A DNA stretch of 64,000 bases from an uncultured Alphaproteobacteria bacterium (GCA_902546975.1 CACCLU010000004.1:89134-153133); one strand, 5' to 3'. Shown: positions 11,147 to 31,604, numbered from the stretch's first letter. Translations and numbers: made by a program. Notes: generated by a model from the sequence alone, not told the origin.

Positions 11147-12544
11147 TTAAAATAACTTTAAATATTCTTTGATTTCCCAATCAGTTGTAGTTGTATGATA
11201 TCTAGACCACTCATCATATTTATATCCAATAAAATTGTTTATCATAGCCTCAGAAAAAACTTTTTTAGTTAATTTATCAGCAGCAAAAGCGTCTACTGCC
11301 TCTAATAAATTTCTTGGCAGTGTAGTAACCTCTTTTTTTTCTTTCTCGGTCAAATCATAAAGACTTTTATTAGTTGGTTTTGGGGGCTTCATTTTTTTGT
11401 CGATACCCTCTGTAACAGCTGCGGCTAATAAAGAAAAAGTTAAATAAGGATTTTGAGTTAAATCAGACGCCCTATTTTCTATACAATATCTATTTTGCGG
11501 TAGTCTTATCATAGCTGATCTATTATTACTGCCGTATGTCATGTGTGTAGGAGCCCATGTATGACGGCCACCATCAAGGCCCTCAACAGTAGGAACAAAT
11601 CCATTATATGAGTTAACAGTTGGGCACGCTAGAGCTGTAATCGCTGCTCCATGTTTTAAAATTCCAGCGACAGCATTGTAGGCTTTATCAGAGAAATTAT
11701 TCCCATTCTTATATATGTTATTATTTTTCTTTTTAATTGATGCCACACTATGATTGATGTGAGCGCCAGCTCTCCAATCACTAATAGTTGTCTTTGGCAT
11801 AAATGATACAAAATATCCATATTTTTTTGCAACTTCCTTTAGTAATACTCTTAAAAATACAAATCTATCAGCCATCCCTAGAATATCTGTGTAACCGAAA
11901 TCTAATTCATACTGGCCATATGCACCCTCAGCAACGACGTCATGGAGATCCCATTTCAAATCATTATTTAAAATATCTATTATTTCTTTTAAAAAATGCA
12001 TTCCATCTATTGAGTACTCTGAGTCATACCCAAAAGCTTGTCTTCTCAAATTTATAGGATCTCTATCAATTGCTTTAACTGGTTTGTCGCCCTCCCACTT
12101 CATTAAGAAAAATTCAGGTTCAATACCAACAAAAAATTTCAAGTCAGATTTAGCGCTTTCCTTTATTTGTTTTTTTAACGTCATTCTCGGGCAAACATCG
12201 TAAGGTTTGTCATTCCAATATAAATCTGCAAAAACCCATGCACATGTTTTATCCCATGGACATATAACAAGACTATCCAAATCTGGCACAGGGATTTGAT
12301 CATTATCTGCTGGGGTTAATTCTGGAACAAAGGAAACAGAATGAACAGCAAATTGAGGGCCTTTACCCATACAAAGATCCTCAAAATCAGATATAGGCAT
12401 AGGCTTAGTTTTTGGACTACCCAGAAAATCAATCCAATTAGAATAAATGTATTTTACTCCTTTTTTTTCTAAATCCTTTTTTATTTTTCTAACTTTTTTT
12501 ACATCAGGTAAGGCGTCTTTAAAATTTTCAAAATATTGACCCAA
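11147..12544 (-). CDS. Glutamine synthetase-like gamma-glutamyl-amine ligase (paralog 3)
   Basis: GIEPEF, GQYELDF, FMPK, HINHS, NNRSAMIRLP, IENRASD..NPY; TTG start with GGAGGAG Shine-Dalgarno; flap reads TWAP rather than EAP. Confidence 0.85.
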   Translation of the reverse strand: MGQYFENFKDALPDVKKVRKIKKDLEKKGVKYIYSNWIDFLGSPKTKPMPISDFEDLCMGKGPQFAVHSVSFVPELTPADNDQIPVPDLDSLVICPWDKTCAWVFADLYWNDKPYDVCPRMTLKKQIKESAKSDLKFFVGIEPEFFLMKWEGDKPVKAIDRDPINLRRQAFGYDSEYSIDGMHFLKEIIDILNNDLKWDLHDVVAEGAYGQYELDFGYTDILGMADRFVFLRVLLKEVAKKYGYFVSFMPKTTISDWRAGAHINHSVASIKKKNNNIYKNGNNFSDKAYNAVAGILKHGAAITALACPTVNSYNGFVPTVEGLDGGRHTWAPTHMTYGSNNRSAMIRLPQNRYCIENRASDLTQNPYLTFSLLAAAVTEGIDKKMKPPKPTNKSLYDLTEKEKKEVTTLPRNLLEAVDAFAADKLTKKVFSEAMINNFIGYKYDEWSRYHTTTTDWEIKEYLKLF

Positions 12545-12620
12545 GTTAGTCTCCTCCTAAAATTTAAATCTTATCGAATTGAAATTATATGACCATAATA
12601 TAAAATTACTACTTCAAATT

Positions 12621-12866
12621 ATGAATATTGATTACTTTAAAAAATCATGGATTAAATTTTACAAAAGAGGCTTTATGATGGGATTCTTTGTTTTAACTTT
12701 TATACTCACTGTTGATCAGTTTTTACAGACACCACTTTTTTTTAGTAAGATTACAGATATAAAAGTATTTATGTTCATTATATCCACTATTTTTTTTGCA
12801 GCAGTGTTTTGTGGTCTTTTAGCAGTGATTTTTTTATCACTAATTATGATCGCTACTAAAAAATAA
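12621..12866 (+). CDS. Small hypothetical membrane protein (ATG start preferred over the upstream TTG at 12579)
   Basis: Fills an otherwise empty gap; two hydrophobic stretches; no recognisable family. Confidence 0.4.
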   Translation: MNIDYFKKSWIKFYKRGFMMGFFVLTFILTVDQFLQTPLFFSKITDIKVFMFIISTIFFAAVFCGLLAVIFLSLIMIATKK

Positions 12867-13607
12867 TTATAATTTAATATTTTCTAACCAATTCAGTAAT
12901 TCAAGTTCTCTGTTAAATTGATCTTCATTTTCAAAACTTTGTAATTTATTTAATAATGCTTCAAATTCATTTTCACTCATAATCTTTAAATAATTTCTTT
13001 TCCAATAACTCATTAATTTACCGATATAGTTGTATGGTAGTTCTGGATGATATTGAGTACAAAATATGTTTTGTTTTTTATGACATATAGATTGAATAGA
13101 ATGATTATTCTCAGAAATTATGTCAAAGTCCTTGGGAAGAGTTTCTAAACTATCGTAATGATGACCAGGGGCAGTAAATAAATTTTTTTTATTTTTATAA
13201 ACAAAATGATTTTTTATAATTTTTATTTTTTCAGAATATCCAAACTCTGGACTCATAGAACTTGATATTTTTCCTCCAAATGCTGTTACAACCACTTGAA
13301 GACCCCAACAACTTCCCCAAATTGGTCTTTCTAGAGTTGCTATTCTATCAAATATCTTCAACTGATTTTTATTGTGATCATTGTCATCATAAATATTACC
13401 GAGACCTCCGGTCCATAAAAAGGCATCGTAATCTTCAAAACTAAATTTATTTACATCCTCAATGTAAGGTTTATAAACCGAGATATTTGAGAGGGGATTT
13501 TGCTTTTTAATAATTTCTTCAAAAAAACTATATTGATAAGAAGAATTTGATTTAACATGTTCATTATCATGGTTTTGATCCATGCCACTGATAATTAGTA
13601 AATTCAA
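12867..13607 (-). CDS. Class I glutamine amidotransferase-like protein (putative gamma-glutamyl-amide hydrolase)
   Basis: WTGG, nucleophile GSCWGLQ, QYHPE; no synthase domain. Confidence 0.85.
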   Translation of the reverse strand: MNLLIISGMDQNHDNEHVKSNSSYQYSFFEEIIKKQNPLSNISVYKPYIEDVNKFSFEDYDAFLWTGGLGNIYDDNDHNKNQLKIFDRIATLERPIWGSCWGLQVVVTAFGGKISSSMSPEFGYSEKIKIIKNHFVYKNKKNLFTAPGHHYDSLETLPKDFDIISENNHSIQSICHKKQNIFCTQYHPELPYNYIGKLMSYWKRNYLKIMSENEFEALLNKLQSFENEDQFNRELELLNWLENIKL

Positions 13608-14022: not shown

Positions 14023-15300
14023 TTACTGATATGCCTTGAGATTTAACTCAGCGCTATCAATACCTGCTTTTTGAACTGCATCTGGTACACGTAACCAATT
14101 CATCATTTTCATAATGAATGATAAACCATAACCAGGCACAAATCCTACTAAGAACATGACTATACATCCAACTAACTGTCCACCAAAACTTGTTGGAGGA
14201 ATATCACCAGATGCTGGATAGCCTGAAGCAAATAATCCCATTGCAATCACACCCCATATACCGGCAACTCCATGAACAGATATAGCTCCTACTGGATCAT
14301 CAATCTTGAAAACACTGTGTAACCAATTATTCGCAGGAATAATTATAACACCGCCAACAAAACCGAGAACAAAGGCTAATCCTGGATACCAAACATCAAG
14401 CCCAGACGCACAGGAGAAAATACCTGCAAGACCACCTGACATCATCCAGAATGGGTTACCTTTACTCATCCAGAATGCACCAATCATTCCTCCACCTAGA
14501 CCCATGAGGGTATTGAAAGCGAAAGATGATAATGTTGCTGGAGCACCGTAAATGTTTATCCATCCACCAAACTCTGCACCTGCCCAGATTAAACAACCAC
14601 CGAGGAATCCGAAGAAACCAACAATAATCATTAAAAGACCAATAAATGAGAAACGAAGATCATGACCCTCAATCTCATTCGCAGAACCGTCAGCATTGTA
14701 TTTACCAACTCTAGGTCCTAAGTTTAAGACAACTCCGAAAGCAAACCAACCTGCTACCATGTGAACAACACCAGCTGCTCCAACATCATGATATCCGAAT
14801 TGTGTTACTAACCAACCATCAGGATGCCAGCCCCATGAAGCGGCTAAGATCCATGCTACAGACCCTAAAACAACAGCCAAGAAAGTAAATGAGCTAATTC
14901 TTATTCTCTCAAGAACAGATCCTGAAAAAATAGATGCTGTAGTACAAGCAAATAATGTAAATGCTGCCCAGAAAACACCTGTGGCTTGGTCACTTAACAT
15001 TGGCCCCATAGATACATTCCATGGAGTACCATAACCGTCAAGTGCTATTGGAGTAAATCCCTCTGGAAATGCAAGATAAATATACCAACCAAATAACCAG
15101 AAGGTTGGTATCATAAACGCGAACGCTAAAAGGTTTTTTGTAGCTGAAGAGACCGCGTTTTTAAAACGAGACGATCCTACTTCATACATCAAGAAACCTA
15201 CGTGAATTGCAATCATTAACGCAGTACACCACCAATAGTAAGCTTCCATACTGACGTTCGCTTGCATCATCACGTACGATTCAAGTTCTTCAAGTGTCAT
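14023..15300 (-). CDS. amt: Amt-family ammonium/methylammonium transporter
   Basis: About 11 TM segments, twin His (GVVHMVAG, ISVHGVAG), DDPVGA, GxxER; SD AGGAGG. Confidence 0.92.
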   Translation of the reverse strand: MTLEELESYVMMQANVSMEAYYWWCTALMIAIHVGFLMYEVGSSRFKNAVSSATKNLLAFAFMIPTFWLFGWYIYLAFPEGFTPIALDGYGTPWNVSMGPMLSDQATGVFWAAFTLFACTTASIFSGSVLERIRISSFTFLAVVLGSVAWILAASWGWHPDGWLVTQFGYHDVGAAGVVHMVAGWFAFGVVLNLGPRVGKYNADGSANEIEGHDLRFSFIGLLMIIVGFFGFLGGCLIWAGAEFGGWINIYGAPATLSSFAFNTLMGLGGGMIGAFWMSKGNPFWMMSGGLAGIFSCASGLDVWYPGLAFVLGFVGGVIIIPANNWLHSVFKIDDPVGAISVHGVAGIWGVIAMGLFASGYPASGDIPPTSFGGQLVGCIVMFLVGFVPGYGLSFIMKMMNWLRVPDAVQKAGIDSAELNLKAYQ

Positions 15301-15533: not shown

Positions 15534-16841
15534 ATGGCAACTAACCTTCACCAATTTGCAAAAAAAAATGGTGTTAAATATTTTTTTGTAAGCTTTGTAG
15601 ATTTATTTGGAGTGCTCAGATCAAAGCTTGTACCTGCAACAGCTATAGATGAAATTCAATCTGAAGGTGCTGGATTTGCTGGTTTTGCAACATGGCTTGA
15701 TATGTCTCCAGCTGACTCTGATATGTTTGGTATGCCTGATGGTGATAGTGTTATCCAGCTTCCTTGGAATAAAGAAATAGCTTGGGTTGCCTCAGATTTG
15801 TTTATGGATGGTAAACCAGTAGAAACCTCACCCAGAATAGCCTTAAAAAGACAAATAGAAAAAGCAGCTAAAAAAAATCTTTATATGAAGTCAGGTGTTG
15901 AGTGTGAATTTTTTCTAGTTAATGAAGATGGGACTTCTTTATCAGATCAAAGGGATACGCAAGCAAAACCATGCTATGACTCCTCTGCATTAATGAGAAG
16001 ATATGATGTTATTACTGAAATATGTGACTCAATGATCTCACTTGGATGGAAACCTTACCAAAACGACCATGAGGATGCGAATGGTCAATTTGAAATGAAC
16101 TGGGATTTTTCAGATTGTTTAGTAACTGCAGATAGACATGCTTTTTTTAAATTCATGGTGAAATCTATTGCAGAAAAACATTCATTAAGGGCGACTTTCA
16201 TGCCCAAACCTTTCACAAATTTAACAGGCAATGGATGTCATTGTCATATTTCTATTTGGGATAAATCTGGCAAAAAAAATATGTTTTTAGATAAAAAAGA
16301 TGAATTAGGTTTATCCAAAACTGGTTACAATTTCTTAGGTGGAATAATGGAAAGTGCGGACAAAATGGCTGCTGTTTTTAATCCAACTGTAAACTCCTAT
16401 AAAAGAATTAACGGTAGTGTTACAACATCAGGTGCAACTTGGTCACCAAGTTCGATTACTTGGGCAGGTAACAACAGAACACACATGGTAAGAGTTCCTG
16501 GAGCAGGAAGATTTGAATTGAGATTAATGGATGGAGCTACAAATCCTTATTTACTTCAAGCAGGTATTTTACTTTTAGGATTGGACGGTTTAAATAATAA
16601 AAGAGACCCTGGTAAAAGATTAGATATTAATATGTACACAGAGGGTCACAAGGCTGGAAAAGTAAAGAAATTGCCATTAAATCTTCTTGATGCAATACGT
16701 GATTTTGATAAATCAAAAATCATTAGAGCAGGTTTTGGTGATGATTTAGTTAATAGCTATGTCAAACTAAAAAATCAAGATTGGGGTACTTTTAATAAAT
16801 ACCTTTCTAATTGGGAAAGAGAAACAACTCTAGATTGTTAA
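15534..16841 (+). CDS. gmaS: Gamma-glutamylmethylamide synthetase (GlnT/type III-annotated GS)
   Basis: GAGFAGFATWLDMSP, NDHEDANGQFEMNW, SGATWSP; methylamine-cluster context. Confidence 0.88.
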   Translation: MATNLHQFAKKNGVKYFFVSFVDLFGVLRSKLVPATAIDEIQSEGAGFAGFATWLDMSPADSDMFGMPDGDSVIQLPWNKEIAWVASDLFMDGKPVETSPRIALKRQIEKAAKKNLYMKSGVECEFFLVNEDGTSLSDQRDTQAKPCYDSSALMRRYDVITEICDSMISLGWKPYQNDHEDANGQFEMNWDFSDCLVTADRHAFFKFMVKSIAEKHSLRATFMPKPFTNLTGNGCHCHISIWDKSGKKNMFLDKKDELGLSKTGYNFLGGIMESADKMAAVFNPTVNSYKRINGSVTTSGATWSPSSITWAGNNRTHMVRVPGAGRFELRLMDGATNPYLLQAGILLLGLDGLNNKRDPGKRLDINMYTEGHKAGKVKKLPLNLLDAIRDFDKSKIIRAGFGDDLVNSYVKLKNQDWGTFNKYLSNWERETTLDC

Positions 16842-16848
16842 ATTATTT

Positions 16849-17403
16849 ATGACACCTGAAGTTTTACAAGAAAAGTTTCTTGATTGGCAATGTCAATCTA
16901 GAATTCAGGCATTTAGAACACAAAATGGCAGACCAAATTCATCTATGGCACCTATATTGCTTGATAAGAAAGGAAATGAACTTCTAAGAATTATTGTTGT
17001 AATTTCGGAAAATGATCCTGTAAACACTACAAAACTGTTTGAACACACTTTTAAACGAACTTACGATCCTGCTGATCGATTTGATAAAATGAATAAATTT
17101 TTATCTTCTGAATATTTTATGGATAAAGATAAATTTTCAGACTCTTTATTTGCTACTTTTCCAAAAAACTCAAGTATCTCAAAAAAAGTAGTTAAAGACG
17201 GCTCATGTATCTTAGATTTTATTCACCTTTCTACAAATTATAGATTGTCATGCTCTCCTTTTATTCTCGATAAAAATGAGGAACATTGGGAAAATATTTT
17301 TTGGCATAATAAAAATTTTAATTCTGGTTTGGGAAATGACATTGATGTTATAAAATTTATTCCAAACTGGAAAAAATCTAAATTAATAAGAATTAAAGAT
17401 TAA
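16849..17403 (+). CDS. Hypothetical protein co-transcribed with gmaS
   Basis: 184-aa ORF starting 7 nt after the gmaS stop and followed by a hairpin. Confidence 0.75.
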   Translation: MTPEVLQEKFLDWQCQSRIQAFRTQNGRPNSSMAPILLDKKGNELLRIIVVISENDPVNTTKLFEHTFKRTYDPADRFDKMNKFLSSEYFMDKDKFSDSLFATFPKNSSISKKVVKDGSCILDFIHLSTNYRLSCSPFILDKNEEHWENIFWHNKNFNSGLGNDIDVIKFIPNWKKSKLIRIKD

Positions 17404-17450: not shown

Positions 17451-17927
17451 TTACTCAACTAACTTAAAGTTCTCACCCTTAGCGTATGTTCTTTTTAACT
17501 GTACCAAGGGATGATTAGGTGACATTTGAAACTTAATTAAAAGTTCTCTTGCTAACATATCTCTGTCTTGTTGGTTTTTTGGAAGTTTAATCTTCTTTGG
17601 TAAAGTTATCCAAGCGTTTGCATTTCTGTCAAACACAGCAGGGGTATCGCCTTCAAAACCCATATGGATGTCCTCTAACCAATTTAAATCATCCCAACCC
17701 ATAATTTCGATATATTGTTTAAGAAATGGTGTTAAGTGCTTGTAATCAGGAATTAGGTTAACATCATAACGATAGCCAATATGCTGGCCAATCATTTTTT
17801 CTCTTGATGTTTTAATTTCCTTATCTTTTAATTTAGCTCCGCCGACAACTTGATAACCTTTTGACTTAGTAGGTTTTTTTGATTTTGCAGAAGTTGATTT
17901 CTTTTTTGTAACTTTCTTTTTAACCAT
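17451..17927 (-). CDS. Hypothetical protein with Lys-rich N-terminal tail
   Basis: SD AGGAG; last gene of the 23893-17451 operon. Confidence 0.75.
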   Translation of the reverse strand: MVKKKVTKKKSTSAKSKKPTKSKGYQVVGGAKLKDKEIKTSREKMIGQHIGYRYDVNLIPDYKHLTPFLKQYIEIMGWDDLNWLEDIHMGFEGDTPAVFDRNANAWITLPKKIKLPKNQQDRDMLARELLIKFQMSPNHPLVQLKRTYAKGENFKLVE

Positions 17928-17936
17928 AATACTCTC

Positions 17937-19271
17937 CTAAATTGAGTGGTAGTTATCTACACCTACTGTTAAATCTGTACCAGCCAATGGAACTTTAGCC
18001 ATTGCTGATGACTCCATTGTCAATGCAGCTAGATCTTCTGGCTCAAGTGAGTGAATGTTTGTCTTACCACATGCTCTTGCTAACATTTGGCACTCAAGAG
18101 TCATAGTGCTAAGCAAATTATAAACTCTCTCTGCTGCCTCTGTTGGGTCTAATCTACTTCTAAGAACAGGATCCTGTGTGGCCACACCAACTGGACATCT
18201 ACCAGTATGGCAGTGATAGCAGTAACCTGCCTCCACTCCCATTTCTTTTTCATAATCAGCTTCTGGAATATCTTTGTTACAGTTCAGTGCTACTAATCCA
18301 GCTGTACCGATAGCAATAGCATCTGCACCAAGAGCTAAGGCTTTAGCCATATCAGCTCCATCTCTAATACCTCCAGCAAATACCAATGATATTTCACCAG
18401 TTTTACCAACATCGTCCAAAGCTCTTCTTGCTTCTCTAATTGCCCCAATACCAGGAATACCAGTATTAGCTGCTGCGATGTGTGGGCCAGCTGCTGTTGA
18501 GCCTTCCATAGAGTCTAAAAATATAGAGTCAGGGTCACATTTTGCTGCCATTCTGACATCGTCATAAACTCTTGATGCACCTAATTTCAATTGAATTGGC
18601 ACTTGATTGTCAGTTAATTCTCTTAATTCTTGAACCTTAAGAGCTAAATCGTCCGGTCCCATCCAGTCTGGGTGTCTAGCAGGGGATCTTTGATCAATAC
18701 CAGCAGGTAATGATCTCATCTCAGCTACTTGGTCAGTAACTTTCTGGCCCATTAAGTGACCACCCATCCCAACTTTTTGACCTTGGCCAATGAAAACCTC
18801 AATAGCGTCAGCTAATTGAGCATGGTGTGGGTTGAAGCCATACCTGGATTGAATACATTGATAATACCATTTGTGAGAGTACCTTCTCTCATCAGGTATC
18901 ATACCCCCTTCTCCAGAGCAAGTTGCACTTCCAGCCATTGATGAACCTCTAGCTAAAGCAGTTTTTGCTTCATAAGAAAGAGCACCAAAACTCATACTTG
19001 TTATGTAAACAGGAATATCAAGTTTGATAGGATTTTTTGCTCTAGGGCCTATTATTGTTTCTGTTAGACACTTCTCTCTGTAACCTTCAATAACAAATCT
19101 TGTTAATGTGCCTGGTAAAAAAACTAAATCATCCCAGTGAGGAATTTTTTTCATTAACGCCATACCACGCATACGATAACGACCAAGTTGTGATTTGATA
19201 TGAATGTCGTCCATTACCTCGGGGGTAAAAATTGAGTTTTGTCCTAATAATTGTGTATTACGTTTTGCCAT
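17937..19271 (-). CDS. FMN-binding glutamate synthase-family subunit (MgsC paralog retaining Cys cluster)
   Basis: SMSFGALS, SGEGG, GQGQKVGMGGHL, SPARHPD, CYHCHTGRCPVGVATQD. Confidence 0.88.
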   Translation of the reverse strand: MAKRNTQLLGQNSIFTPEVMDDIHIKSQLGRYRMRGMALMKKIPHWDDLVFLPGTLTRFVIEGYREKCLTETIIGPRAKNPIKLDIPVYITSMSFGALSYEAKTALARGSSMAGSATCSGEGGMIPDERRYSHKWYYQCIQSRYGFNPHHAQLADAIEVFIGQGQKVGMGGHLMGQKVTDQVAEMRSLPAGIDQRSPARHPDWMGPDDLALKVQELRELTDNQVPIQLKLGASRVYDDVRMAAKCDPDSIFLDSMEGSTAAGPHIAAANTGIPGIGAIREARRALDDVGKTGEISLVFAGGIRDGADMAKALALGADAIAIGTAGLVALNCNKDIPEADYEKEMGVEAGYCYHCHTGRCPVGVATQDPVLRSRLDPTEAAERVYNLLSTMTLECQMLARACGKTNIHSLEPEDLAALTMESSAMAKVPLAGTDLTVGVDNYHSI

Positions 19272-20107
19272 TAGCCTAATATTCCTTTCTTTTCTGCTGG
19301 CTCTAGATTGTCATAATTCCAGAGCATTCTTCCTGCAACGTATTTCTTAAATTTTGAAGCTGGGACCTTGCAATCAATCTCAGCATTTTTAATTTTTTGT
19401 TCTAGCCATCTAACCTCGTGTTCATTCATTTCACCAGGTACGCAGTCTGTTCCAAGCGAATGAGGCTCCCCTCCTACAAAAATGATTCCATCATACATTG
19501 AGTCACCCATGTTTGCGTTTACATCACCACAAACGATAATTCTTCCTCTTTGCATCATAAATCCAGTGTAAGCTCCAGCATTTCCGCCAATAAGAATAGT
19601 GCCACCTTTCATATCAATTCCAGTTCTTGCACCTGCATCGCCTTTAACTATAAGGTCACCGCCTCTAAGAGCAGCTCCAAAACAAGATCCTGCATTGTTT
19701 TCAACAACAACTTTTCCTGACATCATATTTTCAGCACATGACCAACCAACTCTTCCGTTAACTCTCACTGTTGGTCCATCGATACAACCGATACCAAAAT
19801 AACCTAAGCTACCCTCAAAGATTAAGTTTAACTTATTTAGAATTCCCACACCAAGTGAATGTTTTGCACCAGGGTTTTTAATAACTATAGACCCATATCC
19901 CTTTCGAATTGCATCTCTGATTTTTTGATTCAATTCATGAGCATCAATGCCTTCACAATCAATGGAGGTTCTTTTATTAAAATCAACTTCGTGATTACCG
20001 TAGTAGGTATAATTTTCTTCTTCTGTTACTTCAAAATATAATTTTTGCGATCTACCTGATAAATTTTCATCATCAAAAGCAGTAGTTCTTTTTGTTATGC
20101 CTGCCAT
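19271..20107 (-). CDS. GXGXG-domain protein (MgsB/GltB3 paralog) with N-terminal extension
   Basis: Repeated G-x-G-x-G beta-helix motifs (GDAGARTGIDMKGG, GNAGAYTGFMMQRG). Confidence 0.85.
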   Translation of the reverse strand: MAGITKRTTAFDDENLSGRSQKLYFEVTEEENYTYYGNHEVDFNKRTSIDCEGIDAHELNQKIRDAIRKGYGSIVIKNPGAKHSLGVGILNKLNLIFEGSLGYFGIGCIDGPTVRVNGRVGWSCAENMMSGKVVVENNAGSCFGAALRGGDLIVKGDAGARTGIDMKGGTILIGGNAGAYTGFMMQRGRIIVCGDVNANMGDSMYDGIIFVGGEPHSLGTDCVPGEMNEHEVRWLEQKIKNAEIDCKVPASKFKKYVAGRMLWNYDNLEPAEKKGILG

Positions 20108-21036
20108 ACTTTTACCTCCGCTTCATAAGGGTCATATGTTTTAATTTCGTGAGGAAATATATTCCTAATTGCAACTTCCTCTGATGCACATGCTACGATG
20201 TCTTTACTTTCGTAGATTACCATTGGCTTAGCGGCCATATGGTCTTTTGCCATTCCCAACTGATCCTTTGTTGCTACAACATATGTAAAAACTCCATCGA
20301 GCTCATCCAAGCTATCATGCATAGCTTTTTCTAGTTCAATGCCGTTAGCCATCTTATCAGCTATATAGACAGCAATTATTTCTGAGTCACAATTTGAATT
20401 AAACCTGTAACCTTTTCTTTCAAGTACTCTTCGATTGCCCCAATAGTTAGTCAATTGACCATTATGAACAACTGACACATCCTCAAAAGGAAAAGCCCAA
20501 TAAGGGTGTGCGGATTTAATATCTACATCAGACTCGGTAGCCATCCTTGTATGGCCAATACCGTGGGTACCCATAAATTTATCAAGGCCATATTGATTGG
20601 ATACAGTATTTGCATCGCCTAAGTCTTTAATGAGCTCAAGACCCTTACCAATAGATAAAATTTCAGTTTTTTCGACTGTTTCTATCTCAGTAGCCAAATC
20701 TGTGAGGTCACCTTTAAAATCAAATATATATCTGAAAGCGTATGGGGTGCTGGAGCTTTCTTTTGTTACTTTAGCACCATGTTTTTTTAAAATAGAGTCG
20801 ACAGCATTTTTTCTATTTTTTAAATCAGCAGGTGAGTCGACAGTTGCATTTACCTTTTCAGCCTCGTTTTCAGATATTTTAAATCTCATTACAAAGCCTT
20901 TTTTTAAAGGTGTTCCGTACATAGCATATCCTGTTGAGTCAGGTCCCCTATGTTTAAGACCTTGTAACATAAGGCCCATTTGTTCACCGACGTTGACTGT
21001 CTTCTTTTTATTTATAACTCCAGCTATTCCACACAT
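20095..21036 (-). CDS. Class II (Ntn) glutamine amidotransferase (MgsA paralog)
   Basis: N-terminal MCGIAG, HRGPDSTG, GHTRMATES, HNGQLTN, DSE. Confidence 0.88.
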   Translation of the reverse strand: MCGIAGVINKKKTVNVGEQMGLMLQGLKHRGPDSTGYAMYGTPLKKGFVMRFKISENEAEKVNATVDSPADLKNRKNAVDSILKKHGAKVTKESSSTPYAFRYIFDFKGDLTDLATEIETVEKTEILSIGKGLELIKDLGDANTVSNQYGLDKFMGTHGIGHTRMATESDVDIKSAHPYWAFPFEDVSVVHNGQLTNYWGNRRVLERKGYRFNSNCDSEIIAVYIADKMANGIELEKAMHDSLDELDGVFTYVVATKDQLGMAKDHMAAKPMVIYESKDIVACASEEVAIRNIFPHEIKTYDPYEAEVKVWQA

Positions 21037-21055
21037 ACTTTTCTCCTATCTTATC

Positions 21056-22525
21056 TTATGGTAAGCAATCTAGGTATTTATCGAGATCCCATTGAGTCGG
21101 AGTTGCTAAAAATTCTTCCCACTCATCTCTTTTATACTCCATAAACACTTTCATCATGTCACCTGGTAGAGCATCTTGTATTACCTTATCGGTTTCTAAT
21201 CGATCTAATGCCTCACCAAGAGTCATTGGTAATTTTTCAACTTGCTTACCAGCTTTCATTTGTTCATACATATTTTGTTGTTCAGGTTTGCCTGGATCCA
21301 TTTTCTTTGAAATACCATGGTCGAATGCTTTCAACAGGCCGCTTCCCATTAAGTATGGGTTGTGGGCTGAGTCAACTGATCGATATTCAAATCTACCAGG
21401 GGCAGATACCCTTAAACCACAGGTTCTGTTTTGATATCCCCAGTCCGCATAAACTGGAGCCCAAAAACCTGTATCCCAAAGTCTTCTATATGAATTCACA
21501 GTTGAGGAACCCAAGGCTGTTAAAGCAGGAAGGTGTTCCATGACACCACCAATTGCTTGAAGGCCTATTTTTCCAGGAATTCTTCTATCTTTTCCGTCCG
21601 GCATAAAGACATTTGTACCTCCCCTACGGTGATGAAATACATTTTCCATACCTGGGATAGTCTTGTTACCACATGGTATTAACTCATCTTTTCCGCCCTT
21701 CCAGAGTGAAATATTTGTGTGACACCCAGAAGCAGACACGCCAACAAATGGCTTACTCAGAAAACAAGCAATCAAATTAAATTCTCTTGCTACTTGAGCA
21801 CAGATTTGTCTGTAAGTTGATAACCTGTCAGCGTTTCTAACAACATCATCGTAGTTGAAATTTAGTTCTAATTGTCCAGGCGCGTCCTCATGGTCACCTT
21901 GGATAATGTCCAAACCCATTGCACGTGAATACTCAATTACTTTCATGTAAACAGGTCTTAATGATTCAAATTGATCAATGTGATAGCAGTAAGGCTTAGA
22001 GAAACCTGAGCCAGTCGGTGAACCATCTTCGTTTTTTGTTAACCACATCATTTCAGGTTCTGTCCCTGCTCGTAATTCTAGTTTGTGTTTCTTTTTAAAT
22101 TCTTCATGGGCTCTTTTTAAGTTACCTCTGCAATCAGATGTAAGATATCCACCAGGATCTTTTTCTTCTTCCCTGTTTCTAAAACAAGTACAAAAAACTC
22201 TGGCAATTCTTTTATCCCATGGAATTTGAACAAATGTTTCAGGGTCAGGTATACCCACTAATTCGTGAGCCTCTGGTCCATAACCTATGTAATCACCATG
22301 TCTATTTGTAAATAGATTAGCAGTAGCTCCATAAACTAATTGGAAACCTTTATTGGCTACACTCTCCCAATGATCTGCAGGAACACCTTTACCTACAATT
22401 CGACCTGTAACAGAAATAAATTGATAATAAATGTACTCAATTCCTAATTTATCAATTTTTTTTCTAACTTGTTTTATATAGTCTTGTCTCTTTTTATCCT
22501 TAACGTACGTTTCTAGCGCTGTCAT
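21056..22525 (-). CDS. Glutamine synthetase-like gamma-glutamyl-amine ligase (paralog 2, GMAS-like)
   Basis: GTEPEM, GDHEDAPGQLE, SASGCH, FWAP, NRTCGLR, FEYRSVD..NPY. Confidence 0.85.
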   Translation of the reverse strand: MTALETYVKDKKRQDYIKQVRKKIDKLGIEYIYYQFISVTGRIVGKGVPADHWESVANKGFQLVYGATANLFTNRHGDYIGYGPEAHELVGIPDPETFVQIPWDKRIARVFCTCFRNREEEKDPGGYLTSDCRGNLKRAHEEFKKKHKLELRAGTEPEMMWLTKNEDGSPTGSGFSKPYCYHIDQFESLRPVYMKVIEYSRAMGLDIIQGDHEDAPGQLELNFNYDDVVRNADRLSTYRQICAQVAREFNLIACFLSKPFVGVSASGCHTNISLWKGGKDELIPCGNKTIPGMENVFHHRRGGTNVFMPDGKDRRIPGKIGLQAIGGVMEHLPALTALGSSTVNSYRRLWDTGFWAPVYADWGYQNRTCGLRVSAPGRFEYRSVDSAHNPYLMGSGLLKAFDHGISKKMDPGKPEQQNMYEQMKAGKQVEKLPMTLGEALDRLETDKVIQDALPGDMMKVFMEYKRDEWEEFLATPTQWDLDKYLDCLP

Positions 22526-22546
22526 TTTATTCCTCCTCCTTTTACA

Positions 22547-23893
22547 TCAACTCCAAGGGAACGGGCTCTTTGAAACCGGATGTAACTTCCCTTCTTCATA
22601 ACGAGAAAATCTAAAAGGTTCTAGAATTTCAGATTTCTCACCAAGTAACTCATTAGATACAAGATCACCTAACCCAGCCATTTTGTATCCATGGTTTGCA
22701 TCAGCTATAATATATACGTTTTCTCTGTATCGGTCGAATACGGGAAAACGATCTGGAGTAACACAGCCAATACCGCCAGCTTTTTGCTTTTTGTATTTAG
22801 CGTGACATCCATCAAATTGCTTTTGGCAAAAAGCCAAAGCTGAGGTCCATTTATCCTCAAAAGAAGCCCTAGGTTGAAACTCATCTGAGTCATGACCATA
22901 AGGGTCAAGACTTATGTCGTTTACAGGTTTATTTATGTCATAAGGAGAGGAGCCGCCTTGTATACCATCTCTGTAGACATCGGGCTTATAGTAAAAACCC
23001 CACATAACATTTTCATGTATAACATCTCCTGTTTTATTTGAGACAAGTGTAGCTTCTGTATCAACATGAATAACTGGGTACTCTGTTCCGTTTGCTGTTT
23101 TATAACTTCTTGGATCAACTTCCAACTCACCCTCTTCAAGCGCCATGTATGACCACATAGGTATATCATCAGTAAATGAACCATCAGGTTTTTTTATTTT
23201 TACGGTGTTAGGTAATTCTAAAATTTCCCAAAATTTTCTTACCCAAGGGCCAGCCGCAACAACTAATTGAGTGCATTCAATTTTACCCTCTGAAGTTTCT
23301 ACAGCCGAAACTGCTCCACTACCATTAGAAGAAATTAAATTGTTAACAGTCACACCTTCTAAAACTTTTGCTCCAGCTGATACTGCTAACTTATGGAAGC
23401 CCTCTATAGCTCCTCTATTAGCTCCATATCCTGTTTTCTTTTCGTGTAAAACTGAAGTGATGCCTTGAGCTTGCCAATCTGGCAACATGTCTTTCATATA
23501 CTTATCACAATCTGATGCTCCCTCGATAAACTCAGAGTCAAATCCTATTTCTTTTTGCTGCTCATAAACTTCAGACATGCCCTCTTGCATAAGCTCGGAG
23601 TTGATCTGCATGTAGCCAACTGGCTTGTAAGTTAAAGCCTCAGCATTCTCATTCCAAACATTTACAGAATGAGCCATTAGTCTTCTCATTGCAGGCTGGT
23701 AGTAGTTGTTCCTTACAATTCCACATGCAACACCACTTGCTCCATTTGCAACTTTGGATTTTTCCAAAACGACTACAGAATTTTCTTTGAGTTGGCCTTT
23801 GCTGGATAATTTTTTACAAAGATGCCATGCGGTGCTCAGACCGTGAATTCCAGCCCCGATTATTAAATAGTCACATTTAGTAGGTAAGCTCAT
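22547..23893 (-). CDS. FAD-dependent oxidoreductase, DAO/SoxB superfamily (start moved to ATG 23893)
   Basis: GAGIHGLSTAWHL Rossmann motif, GASGVACG; SD GGAGG precedes ATG at 23893. Confidence 0.85.
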   Translation of the reverse strand: MSLPTKCDYLIIGAGIHGLSTAWHLCKKLSSKGQLKENSVVVLEKSKVANGASGVACGIVRNNYYQPAMRRLMAHSVNVWNENAEALTYKPVGYMQINSELMQEGMSEVYEQQKEIGFDSEFIEGASDCDKYMKDMLPDWQAQGITSVLHEKKTGYGANRGAIEGFHKLAVSAGAKVLEGVTVNNLISSNGSGAVSAVETSEGKIECTQLVVAAGPWVRKFWEILELPNTVKIKKPDGSFTDDIPMWSYMALEEGELEVDPRSYKTANGTEYPVIHVDTEATLVSNKTGDVIHENVMWGFYYKPDVYRDGIQGGSSPYDINKPVNDISLDPYGHDSDEFQPRASFEDKWTSALAFCQKQFDGCHAKYKKQKAGGIGCVTPDRFPVFDRYRENVYIIADANHGYKMAGLGDLVSNELLGEKSEILEPFRFSRYEEGKLHPVSKSPFPWS

Positions 23894-23952: not shown

Positions 23953-23971
23953 TGTTTCATATTATGAAACA
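23953..23971. promoter_or_regulatory. Palindromic operator TGTTTCAT-ATT-ATGAAACA (perfect copy)
   Basis: Perfect inverted repeat upstream of the extra mgs-like operon; the same motif occurs at 24799, 32918 and 42246. Confidence 0.75.
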
Positions 23972-24010: not shown

Positions 24011-24781
24011 TCAATTGGCAACAATTAGTCGAGAAATTTTAATCGAGGCAGATTGAAGGAGATCGACATAATACATCATAGTTTTTGGGTTTAAAATATT
24101 TTTACTTCCTGATAAAGCGATTCCGGCAAATGATCTTTTATCTTTGTCTAAAATAGCAACTCCTATTCCATAAGAGTTTTCAAAAGCTTCTCCATGATTA
24201 AGTGCATAACCGTTAGTTCTAATTTTGCCTAGTTGTCTTTTTAAATCATTTAAATTTGTAATTGTATTGTTTGTGTGTGGATAAAAATTATAACTACGAT
24301 AAATTGTTGCAATTTCATTTTCAGGTCTGTAAGCAAGCATGACTTTTCCCAAAGCACAGCAATGAGCGTCAAGTCTCATTCTAAAAGTTCTAATAGTTGC
24401 ATCATCATTGTTGTCAGAAATTTTATCAGAATGAACTATTTGAGATCCTTCAAGCATTGCCAAATAGGTAATTAAATTCGTTTTACTAGAGACCTCTTTT
24501 AGAATTTCTTTAGAAGTCTCAGAAATTGACTGAAGATAATCTGAGGTTTCTCCAAATTGAAAAGCTTTATGCCCCATAGTGTATGTATTCGATCCAGTAT
24601 TTTTATGGATATAACCAAGTTGAGATAAAACAGACAATAGTCTAAATGTAGTTGTTCTAGATAAAATTGCTTTTCTGGAAATATTCGATGCCTTCAACGG
24701 GAAAATTGATTTTGATAAAATTTCAAGAATTTTAAAAGATTTTTCCAGAGATTTATTTATATATTTTAAATTTTGTTGCAA
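24011..24781 (-). CDS. IclR family transcriptional regulator
   Basis: N-terminal KSLEKSFKILE..HTH (LSRTTTFRLLSVL..LGY), AHCCALGKVMLA, IRTNGYA; TTG start with GGAGG SD. Confidence 0.92.
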   Translation of the reverse strand: MQQNLKYINKSLEKSFKILEILSKSIFPLKASNISRKAILSRTTTFRLLSVLSQLGYIHKNTGSNTYTMGHKAFQFGETSDYLQSISETSKEILKEVSSKTNLITYLAMLEGSQIVHSDKISDNNDDATIRTFRMRLDAHCCALGKVMLAYRPENEIATIYRSYNFYPHTNNTITNLNDLKRQLGKIRTNGYALNHGEAFENSYGIGVAILDKDKRSFAGIALSGSKNILNPKTMMYYVDLLQSASIKISRLIVAN

Positions 24782-24851: not shown

Positions 24852-26171
24852 TTAAATCTTACCAGGCACCCAACCGGTTCCCGCTAAAGGAACCCTTGCC
24901 ATTGCAGCAGCTTCAACTGTTAATGCACATAGGTCCTCAGGTTCAAGATTATGTAAATCGTTTTTACCACATGCCCTCGCTATAGTTTGGGCTTCAAGAG
25001 TCATAACCTTGAGATAATTAGATAATCTTTTTCCACCTTTTACTGGATCTAATCTTTTCATTAATTTTGGATCTTGTGTATTTATACCTGATGGGTCTTT
25101 ACCTTCATGCCAATCATCGAAAGCACCAGCTGTTGTTCCAAGTTTTTTGTAATCGCTCTCCCACTTTGGATCATTATCACCCAGTGCAATTAATGCTGAT
25201 GAACCAATGGAAACAGCATCAGCACCCAATGCCATAGCTTTTGCAACATCCGCACCATTTCTAATTCCACCTGAAATAATTAACTGAACCTTCCTGTGCA
25301 TATCTAAGTCTAATAAAGCATCTACTGCTGGCCTGATACATGCCAATGTTGGCTGACCTACGTTTTCGATAAATACCTCTTGTGTAGCTGCAGTACCTCC
25401 TTGCATGCCATCAAGCACCACCACATCAGCACCGGCTTTTACTGCAAGTGCAGTATCGTAGTAAGGCCTAGATCCTGCAATTTTTACAAATATGGGAACT
25501 TTCCAACCTGTTATTTCCCTGAGTTCTAAAATTTTAATTTCCAAATCATCTGGTCCAGTCCAATCTGGATGTCTACATGCTGATCTCTGATCAATTCCTT
25601 TTGGTAATGTTCTCATCTCGGCAACACGATCACTTATCTTTTGACCGAGTAACATACCTCCACCGCCAGGTTTAGCACCTTGACCTATCACAACTTCAAT
25701 AGCATCTGCTTTTCTTAAATCCTCTGGATTCATTCCATACCTTGAGGGAAGTAATTGGTAAACCAAATGCTTTGATTGTCCTCTCTCCTCAGGGGTCATG
25801 CCTCCATCGCCTGTTGTCGTTGAAGTCCCGGCAATACTAGCTCCTCTTCCAAGCGCTTCTTTCGCTGGTCCTGAGAGAGCTCCAAAGCTCATTCCAGCAA
25901 TTGTTATTGGAATATCTAATTCAAGCGGTTTTTTTGCAAATCTTGTTCCAAGAGTGACGTTAGTACTACACTTTTCTCTATAGCCCTCTAAAGGGTATCT
26001 TGACATTGATGCGCCTAAAAAAAGAAGATCGTCAAAATGAGGTAGTCTTTTTTTTGAACCACCGCCTCTAATGTCATAAATACCTGTTTCTGCAGCTCTT
26101 CGAATTTCAGAGTTTGTATAGTCATCAAATGTCCAAGATTTTCTTGGTGTAGTTTTAAATTTTTCTGCCAT
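24852..26171 (-). CDS. mgsC: N-methylglutamate synthase FMN subunit
   Basis: AGMSFGALS, TGDGG, GQGAKPGGGGMLLG, SACRHPDWTGPDDL; Cys-less FDDWHEGKDP. Confidence 0.85.
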   Translation of the reverse strand: MAEKFKTTPRKSWTFDDYTNSEIRRAAETGIYDIRGGGSKKRLPHFDDLLFLGASMSRYPLEGYREKCSTNVTLGTRFAKKPLELDIPITIAGMSFGALSGPAKEALGRGASIAGTSTTTGDGGMTPEERGQSKHLVYQLLPSRYGMNPEDLRKADAIEVVIGQGAKPGGGGMLLGQKISDRVAEMRTLPKGIDQRSACRHPDWTGPDDLEIKILELREITGWKVPIFVKIAGSRPYYDTALAVKAGADVVVLDGMQGGTAATQEVFIENVGQPTLACIRPAVDALLDLDMHRKVQLIISGGIRNGADVAKAMALGADAVSIGSSALIALGDNDPKWESDYKKLGTTAGAFDDWHEGKDPSGINTQDPKLMKRLDPVKGGKRLSNYLKVMTLEAQTIARACGKNDLHNLEPEDLCALTVEAAAMARVPLAGTGWVPGKI

Positions 26172-26854
26172 TAGTACTCCGATACATTATCTATATTAAA
26201 ATTATAAAGTTTTCTTGCTGAACCATACATTTTGAAGTTTTTAATCTCACTTTCATTTATACTTGCTTTTTTTAAAAGAGATCTCAAAATATTTTGATCT
26301 TTTTTATTCATTTTTTTCTCTTCGCAGTCAGCACCGAGTGATTTCACCTTACCCTTAATAAAAATATTTGCTTCATAGATACTGTCTCCCAGAGCGTCTC
26401 CAGCATCTCCACATATAACTAAATTTCCAGATTGAGCCATAAATGCAGACATATGGCCTACCGATCCTTTAACTATAATATCTATTCCTTTCATTGAAAT
26501 CCCACAACGTGAACTAGTATCACCATCAATGATCAAAGTTCCACCATGTGCTGTAGCACCGGCTGATTGGGATGCATTGCCCTTAACATGAACAGTTCCA
26601 GACATCATATTTTCTGCAACACCTGTGCCCACATTTCCATTTACAATGATATTTGCATTCATGTTCATACCAGCACAATAGTATCCTGTGTGACCATCAA
26701 TAGTGACTTCAATCTCGTCTTTTAGTCCAGCACAAATAGCGTGATTTCCATCTGGATTTGAAATTTTAAAAATCTTTTTGTTTGATTTTCTATCTATACT
26801 CTGAAGAGTTTCATTAACTTTTCTCAATGACTCTTTTTTTAAATTTAAATTCAT
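26171..26854 (-). CDS. mgsB: N-methylglutamate synthase GXGXG subunit
   Basis: GHTGYYCAGM, GNASQSAGATAHGG, RCGISMKG. Confidence 0.85.
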   Translation of the reverse strand: MNLNLKKESLRKVNETLQSIDRKSNKKIFKISNPDGNHAICAGLKDEIEVTIDGHTGYYCAGMNMNANIIVNGNVGTGVAENMMSGTVHVKGNASQSAGATAHGGTLIIDGDTSSRCGISMKGIDIIVKGSVGHMSAFMAQSGNLVICGDAGDALGDSIYEANIFIKGKVKSLGADCEEKKMNKKDQNILRSLLKKASINESEIKNFKMYGSARKLYNFNIDNVSEY

Positions 26855-27735
26855 TATTTGCCCCAGCTGTATACTTTTCCGGGCTCTGGTTCAAAAATTT
26901 TTGCTGAATTTACATTTGGTAAGTGTGCCATTGCTTGAAACTCTGAGGCAATAGCAACATAATCCTTTGTTTCTGCAACAACTGCGGGTTTACAAGCTAT
27001 CTCATCTCTAACAATTGCCATGCCATTTTTGGTTCCAGAAATAAATGTGTAAAAACCATCGAGGTCCTTCAGTCCATCCAAAAGTGTTTCTTTGAGTGAT
27101 TTTTTATCAGATAATCCGTTTGAAATATAACCTGCAGCGACTTCCGTATCATTCAAGGACTTTATTTCAATCCCTTTTTTCTGAAGCGATCTTCTTAAAT
27201 TGTTGTGATTTGACAAAGATCCGTTATGTACAAGACATTCATCCTCGCCTGTGGAATATGGATGAGAGCCATCTGTCGTGATTGCACTTTCTGTTGCCAT
27301 CCTTGTATGCCCAATAGCATGTGAGCCAGAAAACTTCTCTAGTGAAAAATTTTTAACAACATCCTTCGGATTTCCTACTTGTTTAAATATTTCTATGCAA
27401 CTACCATACCCAACTAAACTTAATTCATCATGATTTTTTAAAATTTCTATAAATTTCTTTGGCTTCATTGCTGTTTCAATTATTAAATGATCTGAAATAG
27501 ATTTTACTTTGATATCTTTTACTTGCTTAGATAGTTTTTTTGAAATTTCTTTTACTTGATCAGTATTAGAGCAGACCGAATATTTATATTTCTTTTTTTT
27601 CTCAGATGAGTATATCGCAAAACCTGCACTATCAGGACCACGCGTAGCCATACTATTCATCATTCCAGTAAGAAATTTACCTAATTGTGAATTATATTTT
27701 TTATTTTTTAAATATATTCCAACTATACCGCACAT
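26854..27735 (-). CDS. mgsA: N-methylglutamate synthase Ntn-amidotransferase subunit
   Basis: MCGIVG, RGPDSAG, GHTRMATES, HNGSLSNH. Confidence 0.85.
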   Translation of the reverse strand: MCGIVGIYLKNKKYNSQLGKFLTGMMNSMATRGPDSAGFAIYSSEKKKKYKYSVCSNTDQVKEISKKLSKQVKDIKVKSISDHLIIETAMKPKKFIEILKNHDELSLVGYGSCIEIFKQVGNPKDVVKNFSLEKFSGSHAIGHTRMATESAITTDGSHPYSTGEDECLVHNGSLSNHNNLRRSLQKKGIEIKSLNDTEVAAGYISNGLSDKKSLKETLLDGLKDLDGFYTFISGTKNGMAIVRDEIACKPAVVAETKDYVAIASEFQAMAHLPNVNSAKIFEPEPGKVYSWGK

Positions 27736-27740
27736 TAATA

Positions 27741-28337
27741 TTAAATACCCTCATACCCATACTCTAATGACGAGTCAGTAATGCTATGGTAAAAAGAACC
27801 ACCAAAGCTTCTTAATGCATAAAGGTTAAAACAAAACGGTTGGTCGTCTAAATAGTCGATCAGTATGTTAATTCCGTTATATGTCGTGTTCACGCAATTA
27901 TTTGGTTTAAACATATTTTCATTAAAATTTATTGGAGAACCTTTTTTTAAAACATTTTTTGCATTTACGCCTGATATTTGTAATACAGCTCTTGATTGTG
28001 AAATATCTGTAATGGCAAAATCCTCATCTCTAATCGATTTATAAATTTCGTCTTTCAAGTCAATTTTTTTTGAGATAATTAACCAGGTATCAGGACCGGT
28101 CCACAATACTCTTGTTTCTTGGTTGTGAGAAACTTTTAGACTTTCTGTCGGTAAATTAAGTTGATTTATGGTAACTTTTTCAATCTCAATTGAGCTTTTT
28201 TTAAATTTAGCAATTTGGATAATACTTAGGTCTTTTATTTCTGAAATTTTTAATAGGTTTTCTTTATTCTCATAGTCGCCAAACAAGCCGAGCTTATGAT
28301 CAAAATGAAGTGGTGATAGGTTTTGTGCTTGTTCCAT
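27741..28337 (-). CDS. soxG: Sarcosine oxidase gamma / N-methylglutamate dehydrogenase small subunit
   Basis: LWTGPDTWL, DISQSRAVLQISG, RSF; operon position. Confidence 0.85.
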   Translation of the reverse strand: MEQAQNLSPLHFDHKLGLFGDYENKENLLKISEIKDLSIIQIAKFKKSSIEIEKVTINQLNLPTESLKVSHNQETRVLWTGPDTWLIISKKIDLKDEIYKSIRDEDFAITDISQSRAVLQISGVNAKNVLKKGSPINFNENMFKPNNCVNTTYNGINILIDYLDDQPFCFNLYALRSFGGSFYHSITDSSLEYGYEGI

Positions 28338-31336: not shown

Positions 31337-31601
31337 TAAAGTCCTCGTTCATTTTACACGTATCAAAAATTTCATGTGTAGCGGTGTCTCTTGAGACTTT
31401 AAACCATTGTCTACATCCAGAAACATGATGCCATAGTTCTGAATGTTTTCCTCTTGGGTTGTCTCTGTAGTAAACAAAATTATCCCAATCCTCGGTTGAA
31501 ATTTCTTCTCCTAGTTGAGGTCTTTTTATAGTGGCGTCTCCGCCATAAGAAAATTCATTTTGTGAGCGCTTGCCACAGTATGGGCATTTTATTTCTAACA
31601 T
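31329..31601 (-). CDS. soxD: Sarcosine oxidase delta subunit
   Basis: CPYCG and WHHVSGCRQWF zinc ligands. Confidence 0.93.
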   Translation of the reverse strand: MLEIKCPYCGKRSQNEFSYGGDATIKRPQLGEEISTEDWDNFVYYRDNPRGKHSELWHHVSGCRQWFKVSRDTATHEIFDTCKMNEDFNV

Positions 31602-31604
31602 CTA

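Follow-up and report, generated by a model that had tools for sequence, protein, structure and literature searches.

A six-gene operon in DNA from an uncultured alphaproteobacterium (minus strand, positions 17451-23893 of a 64,000-nucleotide stretch, contig C4:89134-153133, hereafter the window) is the best candidate for the 'missing' dimethylamine (DMA) step of SAR11-type bacteria, because among 94 genomes bearing the trimethylamine N-oxide (TMAO) demethylase Tdm this module was found only where Dmm is absent. In our assessment it is probable, if by no means certain, that the operon provides a DMA route without a DMA monooxygenase and replaces DmmDABC in the pathway from trimethylamine (TMA) via TMAO to DMA. 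SAR11 and many abundant marine bacteria make DMA from TMAO and have no known DMA-using enzyme; SAR11 carries no dmmDABC, and its DMA route has been stated as unknown (PMC5520151, PMC3870248). An earlier note, made from the sequence of the window alone, had proposed that the module supplies the DMA step. This now appears likely, as the search for dmm, the co-occurrence with tdm and the exclusion of dmm all came out in its favour. The genome from which the window was taken comprises 1.29 Mb on 12 contigs (94% complete, about 33% G+C), and near-identical loci occur in single-cell genomes labelled 'uncultured Alphaproteobacteria' (AG-904-K09 type).

Results

Complementary distribution of the module and dmmDABC

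One of the checks named in the earlier note was a search of the remaining genome for dmmABC. Using DmmA, DmmB and DmmC queries from a domain-verified dmmDABC operon, tblastn gave no match in the 1.29-Mb genome, and DmmD matched GcvT-fold paralogues only. The sole match to PF11927, the DmmC domain, was a stand-alone gene encoding 237 amino acids (aa) with 57.6 bits (G000:C1:44397-45110; L016:8398-9111), which adjoins genes for TauE and LysE transporters, is not accompanied by DmmA or DmmB and is found in two genomes of the same genus.

Across a class-wide sample of 401 evenly drawn Alphaproteobacteria, 38 genomes had an orthologue of the module ligase and 33 had Tdm. Tdm was present in 24 of the 38 module genomes compared to 9 of the 363 genomes without the module (odds ratio 67, p = 1e-21), bearing out the association with tdm that the earlier note had expected. 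None of the 24 genomes with both module and Tdm carries dmmDABC. The single genome that appeared to hold both systems (G353) was rejected as such a case: its PF11927 gene is an orphan, 28% identical to DmmC, with no DmmA, DmmB or DmmD nearby. DmmC was detected in four of the six class-wide genomes with full Tdm and no module; the remaining two are a 75%-complete assembly and a genome with a contig break inside tdm.

The same pattern was observed at the family level, in 201 genera represented by one genome each. We refer to this family as Rhodobacteraceae-like on account of the named organisms to which its ligases are related (Roseovarius, Boseongicola and 'Paracoccaceae'). Full Tdm was encoded in 48 of these genera, with DmmC only in 26, the module only in 19, both in none and neither in three (Fisher p = 1.3e-10). 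In the 19 module genera the ligase gene lies 7-15 kb from tdm, within the methylated-amine island in which the other genera carry dmmDABC; in two dmm-type islands, dmmDABC is located between mgsCBA and mgdCBA. A third sample of 17 Tdm genomes from four families had DmmC in 17/17 and the module in 0/17. In total, 43 of the 94 Tdm-bearing genomes had the module only, 46 DmmC only, none both and five neither, four of the latter being fragmented assemblies. The mutual exclusion of module and dmm put forward in the earlier note is thus strict in these genomes.

For these counts, PF11927 matches of 213-238 bits in open reading frames (ORFs) of 349-439 aa (one call of 691 aa), located near tdm when on the same contig, were scored as DmmC, and matches of 129-192 bits in ORFs of mostly about 250-330 aa, located elsewhere, were not. 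Members of the lower class are 26-30% identical to DmmC and have no DmmA, DmmB or DmmD neighbours. As a raw dmm marker PF11927 needed refinement, given that shorter paralogues of 146-192 bits and an orphan gene of 267 bits are not Dmm. The lower subfamily is widespread in both dmm and module genomes of the Rhodobacteraceae-like family (for example G556:C21:31731-32492 and G502:C17:596285-596980).

On a maximum-likelihood Tdm tree of 66 genomes, at least five switches between module and dmm were required, compared to about 22 with shuffled labels. The complementarity is therefore not one single event, and the island type is strongly inherited. Some Rhodobacteraceae-like genomes also encode a Tdm paralogue with 42-48% identity (G093:C84:1817-3643, G258:C1:215126-216955); the first ~165 residues are unaligned in most copies, and some of its host genomes have no true Tdm or GmaS.

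Gene content of the operon

The module consists of the following genes, in order of transcription:

22547-23893, minus strand: DAO-family FAD flavoprotein, 448 aa (PF01266, 121.5 bits, residues 27-241 only)
21056-22525, minus strand: ligase resembling glutamine synthetase (GS), 489 aa (PF00120); orthologue SAR11_1305 'glnT'
20095-21036, minus strand: class-II (Ntn) glutamine-amidotransferase-like (GAT) subunit, 313 aa (PF13522 and PF13537); MgsA paralogue
19271-20107, minus strand: GXGXG subunit, 278 aa (PF01493, 59 bits); MgsB paralogue
17937-19271, minus strand: FMN-binding GltB-like synthase subunit, 444 aa (PF01645, 286.8 bits); orthologue SAR11_1308 'gltB2'
17451-17927, minus strand: small conserved protein, 158 aa with a core at residues 48-150; orthologue SAR11_1309

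The intergenic spacers of -13 to +21 nt are consistent with one operon, and ORF calls and domain searches agree with the six minus-strand genes described in the earlier note. The longest ORF for the DAO reaches 23950; the start at 23893 is preferred because of a GGAGG Shine-Dalgarno sequence and the fit to orthologues of 442-448 aa. The DAO is only distantly related to SoxB, MSOX and glycine oxidase, with no more than 40 bits to any PDB chain. Its orthologues are 47-56% identical and always encoded by the first gene of the unit; the one in strain HTCC1062, SAR11_1304, bears the annotation 'monomeric sarcosine oxidase' ('sox').

The GAT subunit starts with MCGI, and an N-terminal MCG[IV] with the nucleophile Cys1 is present in 103/104 orthologues. 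The FMN subunit aligns to the large chain of glutamate synthase (GOGAT), including the 3Fe-4S motif ...C...CH...CPVGVATQ. This cysteine motif is found in 98 of 101 orthologous FMN subunits and missing from the MgsC of the window. We nevertheless abandoned it as a means of telling module subunits from canonical MgsC, and regard it as only suggestive, because four canonical-type MgsC proteins from SAR11 carry the cysteines too. Two forms of canonical-type mgsC exist in SAR11 (L031, L040, L044 and L085, at about 18670-19995 in each): one is 89-90% identical to the MgsC of the window and has no Fe-S cysteines, the other is 74-75% identical and has the C..CH...CP motif of GOGAT.

The 158-aa protein has no match in Pfam or NCBIfam. 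It is always encoded by the last gene of the unit; between classes its core shows 62-86% identity and contains 60 invariant columns. A Foldseek search of the PDB with its AF2 model (mean pLDDT confidence score 62.8; core 75-87) returned nothing better than E = 0.2.

A canonical pathway and a shared operator in the same window

The module is surrounded by the following genes and sites:

14023-15300, minus strand: Amt-family transporter (PF00909)
15534-16841, plus strand: canonical gamma-glutamylmethylamide synthetase GmaS (TIGR03105, 643.3 bits; 613 bits to the RhGmaS structure 7cql)
16849-17403, plus strand: associated 184-aa protein, convergent to the module, with no match in family searches
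23953-23971: perfect 19-bp operator-like palindrome, 60-78 nt upstream of the DAO start
24011-24781, minus strand: IclR-family regulator (PF09339 and PF01614) between the module and mgsCBA
24852-27735: mgsCBA, the canonical N-methylglutamate synthase genes
27741-32861: mgd genes, soxBDAG-like
33035-34369: tmm
35733-38084, minus strand: Tdm, the DMA-producing TMAO demethylase (NF053776, 1158 bits, cut-off 1100)

As the earlier note had stated, the window holds the steps of the pathway except DmmDABC: gmaS, mgsABC, mgdABCD, tmm and tdm were found, and dmmABC was not. A stand-alone GcvT-like gene is also present. The note had likewise recognised that the module repeats the logic of gmaS, mgsABC and a dehydrogenase with divergent sequences. 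Indeed, identities between the module proteins and their canonical counterparts in the window are 29% for the ligase and GmaS, 31% for MgsA, 37% for MgsB, 50% for MgsC and 23% for the DAO and MgdA (over 213 residues). In Rhodobacteraceae-like islands, the mgs genes next to gmaS, dmm and mgd encode proteins 47-84% identical to the MgsA, MgsB and MgsC of the window.

Three copies of the palindrome TGTTTCATATTATGAAACA are present in the window (23953, 24799 and 32918), compared to 0.09 expected by chance. Besides the copy in front of the DAO gene, one is located upstream of iclR/mgs and one in the divergent promoter region of mgdA and tmm. The description of the element as the module's 'own operator' in the earlier note was therefore wrong, and the three copies place the module in the presumptive regulon of the TMA and monomethylamine (MMA) genes. 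The IclR protein is the likely binder of this shared putative operator. TmaR (PMC13390433) was considered as a parallel and discarded, being an AraC-type regulator and irrelevant to the IclR of the window.

The gene for the 184-aa protein, absent from the earlier note's description of the module, accompanies it as a seventh gene in most other lineages. Its homologues (28-37% identity) adjoin the small protein in 14 of 20 diverse loci, and likewise in three Rhodobacteraceae-like islands, where they are encoded on the strand of the module; no homologue was found in the Pelagibacteraceae loci. The AF2 model of the 184-aa protein (pLDDT 73.7) weakly resembles the FMN-binding split-barrel of PNPOx-like proteins in Foldseek (E = 2e-4, template-modelling (TM) score 0.39-0.5), a predicted likeness that is too weak to assign a role.

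The divergent Amt is among the most constant neighbours of the module (39-45% identity between lineages), and could import methylated amines instead of ammonium. In HTCC1062, amt (SAR11_1310) has a riboswitch-like leader (PMC2704228).

Conservation of the unit across lineages

The complete six-gene unit was found in 66 of 74 Pelagibacteraceae (SAR11) loci. Gene order in this family is tmoXWV (opposite strand), tdm, a 116-aa ORF, DAO, ligase, GAT, GXGXG, FMN subunit, small protein and amt; beyond amt follow mgsABC in a minority of loci and then gmaS. Wherever tdm and the module were both visible, tdm was located upstream on the same strand (65/65 SAR11 loci). In HTCC1062, SAR11_1304, 1305, 1308 and 1309 together with amt (1310) represent the module, and SAR11_1313-1316 the canonical glxBCD/glnT genes (PMC3870248, PMC3160333, PMC2704228). 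The conserved ~116-aa ORF is winged-helix-like and fills the ~450-nt gap between tdm and DAO in Pelagibacteraceae (L085:8045-8497, called there as 150 aa; L040:8149-8499; L027:8151-8501); in SAR11 it may correspond to the IclR or GntR regulators that adjoin the module in other lineages.

The module is present in at least 17 alphaproteobacterial families. Outside SAR11, 18 of 20 loci keep the whole unit in order and the other two have the ligase only; in these 20 loci, amt, tdm, tmm and soxBDA-like genes often occur nearby. In SAR11 the amt homologue is the next gene downstream of the module, and most other lineages have it in the vicinity. In an unrelated genome of ~2 Mb, tdm directly follows the module, and a Geminicoccaceae locus has a split tdm nearby. 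In three Rhodobacteraceae-like islands the order is [GntR], DAO, ligase, GAT, GXGXG, FMN subunit, small protein, CN-hydrolase and 184-aa homologue, and these islands adjoin tmoXWV, tdm, tmm, gmaS, amt or mgd. The CN-hydrolase inserted into these islands (PF00795, 179 bits; L157:18854-19687, also in the G479 and G477 islands) has a 37%-identical homologue elsewhere in the genome of the window (C3:126010-126789). A gammaproteobacterial variant of the module (L011:10001-17721) has no DAO, and carries genes for a polyamine-type solute-binding protein and a class-III aminotransferase between those for ligase and amidotransferase.

The ligase retains the amine pocket of GmaS

Orthologues of the module ligase are 64-77% identical between Alpha- and Gammaproteobacteria. 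The module ligase of the window reached 300.9 bits, in two pieces, against the GmaS equivalog TIGR03105 (cut-off 469.6), and its distance to the structures of GmaS (167-193 bits) is about the same as to those of GS-I (up to 180 bits). In RhGmaS, the amine pocket is formed by Tyr147, Gln175, Asp177, Glu179, Glu186, Asn188 and Lys30', Arg312 is catalytic, and Trp300 replaces the Glu of the GS flap (PMC7948447). These pocket residues, the catalytic Asp177, Glu186 and Arg312, and the Trp flap are kept in 94-95 of 95 module ligases. This conservation points to a small methylated amine as the substrate of the module ligase. Next to the catalytic Asp177, two positions differ: Tyr174 is replaced by Ile (93/95) and Asn176 by Gly (94/95), and these smaller side chains may make room for a second methyl group. 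Canonical RhGmaS is poor on DMA, with a Michaelis constant of 16 mM compared to 27 uM for MMA (PMC7948447), so that a dedicated DMA ligase would be needed.

These features bear on two further readings of the module. The first, that it is a spare GS/GOGAT pair for ammonia assimilation, would account for the GS fold, for the GOGAT-like trio with its 3Fe-4S cysteines and for the annotations glnT and gltB2 in HTCC1062 (PMC3870248). However, Trp stands in place of the flap Glu in 95/95 module ligases and Asp50' is exchanged for Ala or Ser, as in GmaS (PMC7948447), and the score of the ligase reaches none of the GS equivalog cut-offs. Moreover, protein levels of the ligase and GltB2 drop slightly under nitrogen limitation (PMC3870248), and the distribution of tdm and dmm would be left unexplained. 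We consider this explanation scarcely tenable.

The second, that the module acts on an amine outside the TMA pathway (ethylamine, ethanolamine or a polyamine, for example), was a possibility allowed in the earlier note. It would fit the 14 module genomes without Tdm as well as the polyamine-type binding protein and aminotransferase of the gammaproteobacterial variant, but it is at odds with the linkage of the module to tdm, tmm and amt and with its complementarity to dmm. The pocket is that of a small-methylamine ligase, whereas the third ligase of the window (11147-12544) deviates at four pocket or flanking positions. In addition, the module ligase scores 228.5 bits against the PuuA equivalog NF045547, under the cut-off of 650, and the operon has no hydrolase. 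Taken together, this makes another amine improbable as the substrate. The third ligase, whose amine-pocket residues are unlike those of both GmaS and the module ligase, is bordered by genes for a MetX-like hydrolase and for a class-I amidotransferase (region 10130-13607); in total, the 1.29-Mb genome has seven ORFs of the GS family.

Relation to the monomethylamine route

True GmaS, above the equivalog cut-off, was found in 28 of the 38 module genomes, indicating that the module mostly adds to the MMA route and does not substitute for it. The rival explanation that it is an alternative MMA pathway of the N-methylglutamate type, differently regulated or of higher affinity, with the anti-correlation to dmm reflecting island history, draws on the ten module genomes in which canonical GmaS is missing, on the clustering of island types on the Tdm tree and on the pocket residues shared with GmaS. 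It would, however, leave 43 Tdm genomes without a DMA step, while all 46 module-less ones have one, and would explain neither the extra DAO nor the co-presence with GmaS, MgsABC and Mgd in one regulon. For these reasons we regard this alternative as distinctly unlikely, and favour a role of the module in the use of DMA.

A candidate glutamate-mediated pathway for dimethylamine

The gene content suggests a sequence of steps in which DMA as the ligase substrate, the intermediates and the order of reactions are inferred. In the first step, the GS-like ligase would attach the DMA produced by Tdm to the gamma-carboxyl group of glutamate at the expense of ATP, giving gamma-glutamyl-dimethylamide. 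The GOGAT-like trio would then free DMA within its tunnel and condense it reductively with 2-oxoglutarate to N,N-dimethylglutamate, from which the DAO would take off one methyl group as formaldehyde or methylene-tetrahydrofolate, giving N-methylglutamate. Finally, the resident MgdABCD would convert N-methylglutamate to glutamate. An extra flavoprotein fits such an extra demethylation. The two electrons of the third step could pay for the second, with the Fe-S cluster allowing the transfer and the small accessory proteins perhaps also taking part in the return, so that the net reaction would be DMA + 2-oxoglutarate + ATP to N-methylglutamate and a C1 unit. Free MMA would be bypassed throughout, in agreement with genomes such as G226, in which tdm and the module occur together with a Sox/Mgd-like enzyme and gmaS is missing. 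The module may represent a new variant of the N-methylglutamate-type pathway, whose proposed chemistry is plausible in its details. That the complete scheme operates in SAR11, as an oxygenase-free, glutamate-mediated DMA pathway with N5,N5-dimethylglutamine and N,N-dimethylglutamate as intermediates and with DAO electrons recycled via Fe-S and FMN, is a tentative proposal that we consider possible rather than probable.

The main rival assigns the DMA step to the DAO alone. According to this explanation, the DAO is a DMA dehydrogenase or oxidase that replaces Dmm by converting DMA to MMA and formaldehyde, and the ligase and the trio form a coupled second line for trapping MMA, leading from gamma-glutamylmethylamide to N-methylglutamate. 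The ligase pocket, almost identical to that of GmaS, would suit this function, and the synthase of the module may serve MMA in the SAR11 loci without local mgsABC. Action of SAR11_1304 on methylated amines was already speculated upon by Smith (2013) and Lidbury (2017), and the DAO of HTCC1062 is regulated apart from the rest of the module (PMC3870248, PMC5520151). Yet four to five strictly co-inherited genes would then be redundant with gmaS and mgsABC of the same island, GmaS being present in most module genomes, and the gammaproteobacterial variant has kept ligase, trio and small protein without a DAO. As a family, DAO-type enzymes also typically use N-alkyl amino acids and not free small amines. 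A DAO acting alone is therefore unlikely in our view, albeit the strongest of the competing explanations, and we retain the route through glutamylated DMA as the preferred one.

Several points weigh against this preferred route. Tdm is lacking in 14/38 and GmaS in 10/38 module genomes, and in 49 of 61 SAR11 loci mgsABC is missing from the interval that separates amt and gmaS. The synthase of the module may therefore also take gamma-glutamylmethylamide, the module may handle MMA too, or MMA instead, and it is not tied exclusively to TMAO. Under nitrogen limitation, HTCC1062 strongly increased the DAO protein and slightly lowered the ligase to 0.67 fold and GltB2 to 0.66 fold (PMC3870248); given these opposite responses, the module genes are not always co-regulated. 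The split between the two PF11927 classes was defined after the data had been seen, with synteny in support of it. The Tdm tree provides five independent contrasts only, for which a sign test is powerless, while Dmm never shifts in the same direction as the module. Oxidation of DMA by SAR11 is without published evidence (PMC5520151), and a literature search that covered few subscription journals found no report of gamma-glutamyl-dimethylamide or N,N-dimethylglutamate in bacteria.

Within the same coverage, searches by locus tags and by DMA, SAR11 and glutamyl terms found no function assigned to the module genes. Among published growth phenotypes, we found none on DMA for a Dmm-less strain. Roseovarius indicus was set aside, as it is reported to be without DMA genes and does not grow even on MMA (PMC7574528), and the Roseovarius strains of Lidbury's Table S3 were rejected as Dmm-less cases because they have dmm.

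Discussion

The module shares its logic and folds with the N-methylglutamate pathway of Methyloversatilis universalis, Methylocella silvestris and Ruegeria pomeroyi: as in GmaS/MgsABC/MgdABCD, a ligase is followed by Ntn, GXGXG and FMN subunits in the same order and by a flavoprotein demethylase. The trio has the domain order of MgsABC, but at 31, 37 and 50% identity it is not orthologous to the characterised lineage. In contrast to GmaS, the module ligase has an insertion of about 25-37 aa, and a single DAO takes the place of the SoxBDAG-like heterotetramer MgdABCD. Unlike the known pathway, the module always includes the small 158-aa protein, and its distribution tracks the absence of dmm and not the presence of MMA genes.

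Its relation to DmmDABC (also HODM; Ruegeria pomeroyi SPO1579-1582, Methylocella, Pseudomonas mendocina) is one of position without homology. Both occupy the same island near tdm and show a complementary distribution, which suggests that they act at the same step, the removal of DMA. The module has neither DmmA (PF22290/PF22289) nor DmmB (FNR and Fer2) nor DmmC (PF11927), and any correspondence would be a functional analogy only. Whereas DmmDABC is a haem enzyme that depends on O2 and NAD(P)H and releases free MMA, the module would be ATP-dependent and oxygenase-free.

The pairing of a GS-like ligase with an oxidising enzyme is also known from the Puu (putrescine), Ipu (isopropylamine) and Atd/Tdn (aniline) pathways; in these a gamma-glutamyl hydrolase takes the last step and, unlike in the module, a GOGAT-like trio is missing. 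The three middle genes of the module correspond to the three domains of GltB, the GOGAT large subunit, in split form, and the FMN subunit keeps the 3Fe-4S cysteines. Unlike GOGAT, the operon has no GltD partner, and the ligase that accompanies its trio is no glutamine synthetase.

A 'metabolic bottleneck' at DMA has been proposed to explain the abundance of DMA in aerosol over the ocean (PMC5520151, PMC3870248). If the oxygenase-free reading holds, the route would run in SAR11 and in roughly half of the Tdm-bearing Alphaproteobacteria, and there would be no 'DMA bottleneck' at the genetic level. If the module supplies the missing step, estimates of DMA-degrading potential from metagenomes would have to be revised upwards, about half of the sampled Tdm genomes being scored as lacking the step, and a new ATP-dependent route with new intermediates would join C1 and nitrogen metabolism. 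As the genes are defined and hosts can be cultured, a question stated as open for the marine nitrogen cycle becomes directly testable. If our interpretation is true, the most abundant heterotrophs of the ocean can fully mineralise the nitrogen and carbon of TMA and TMAO.

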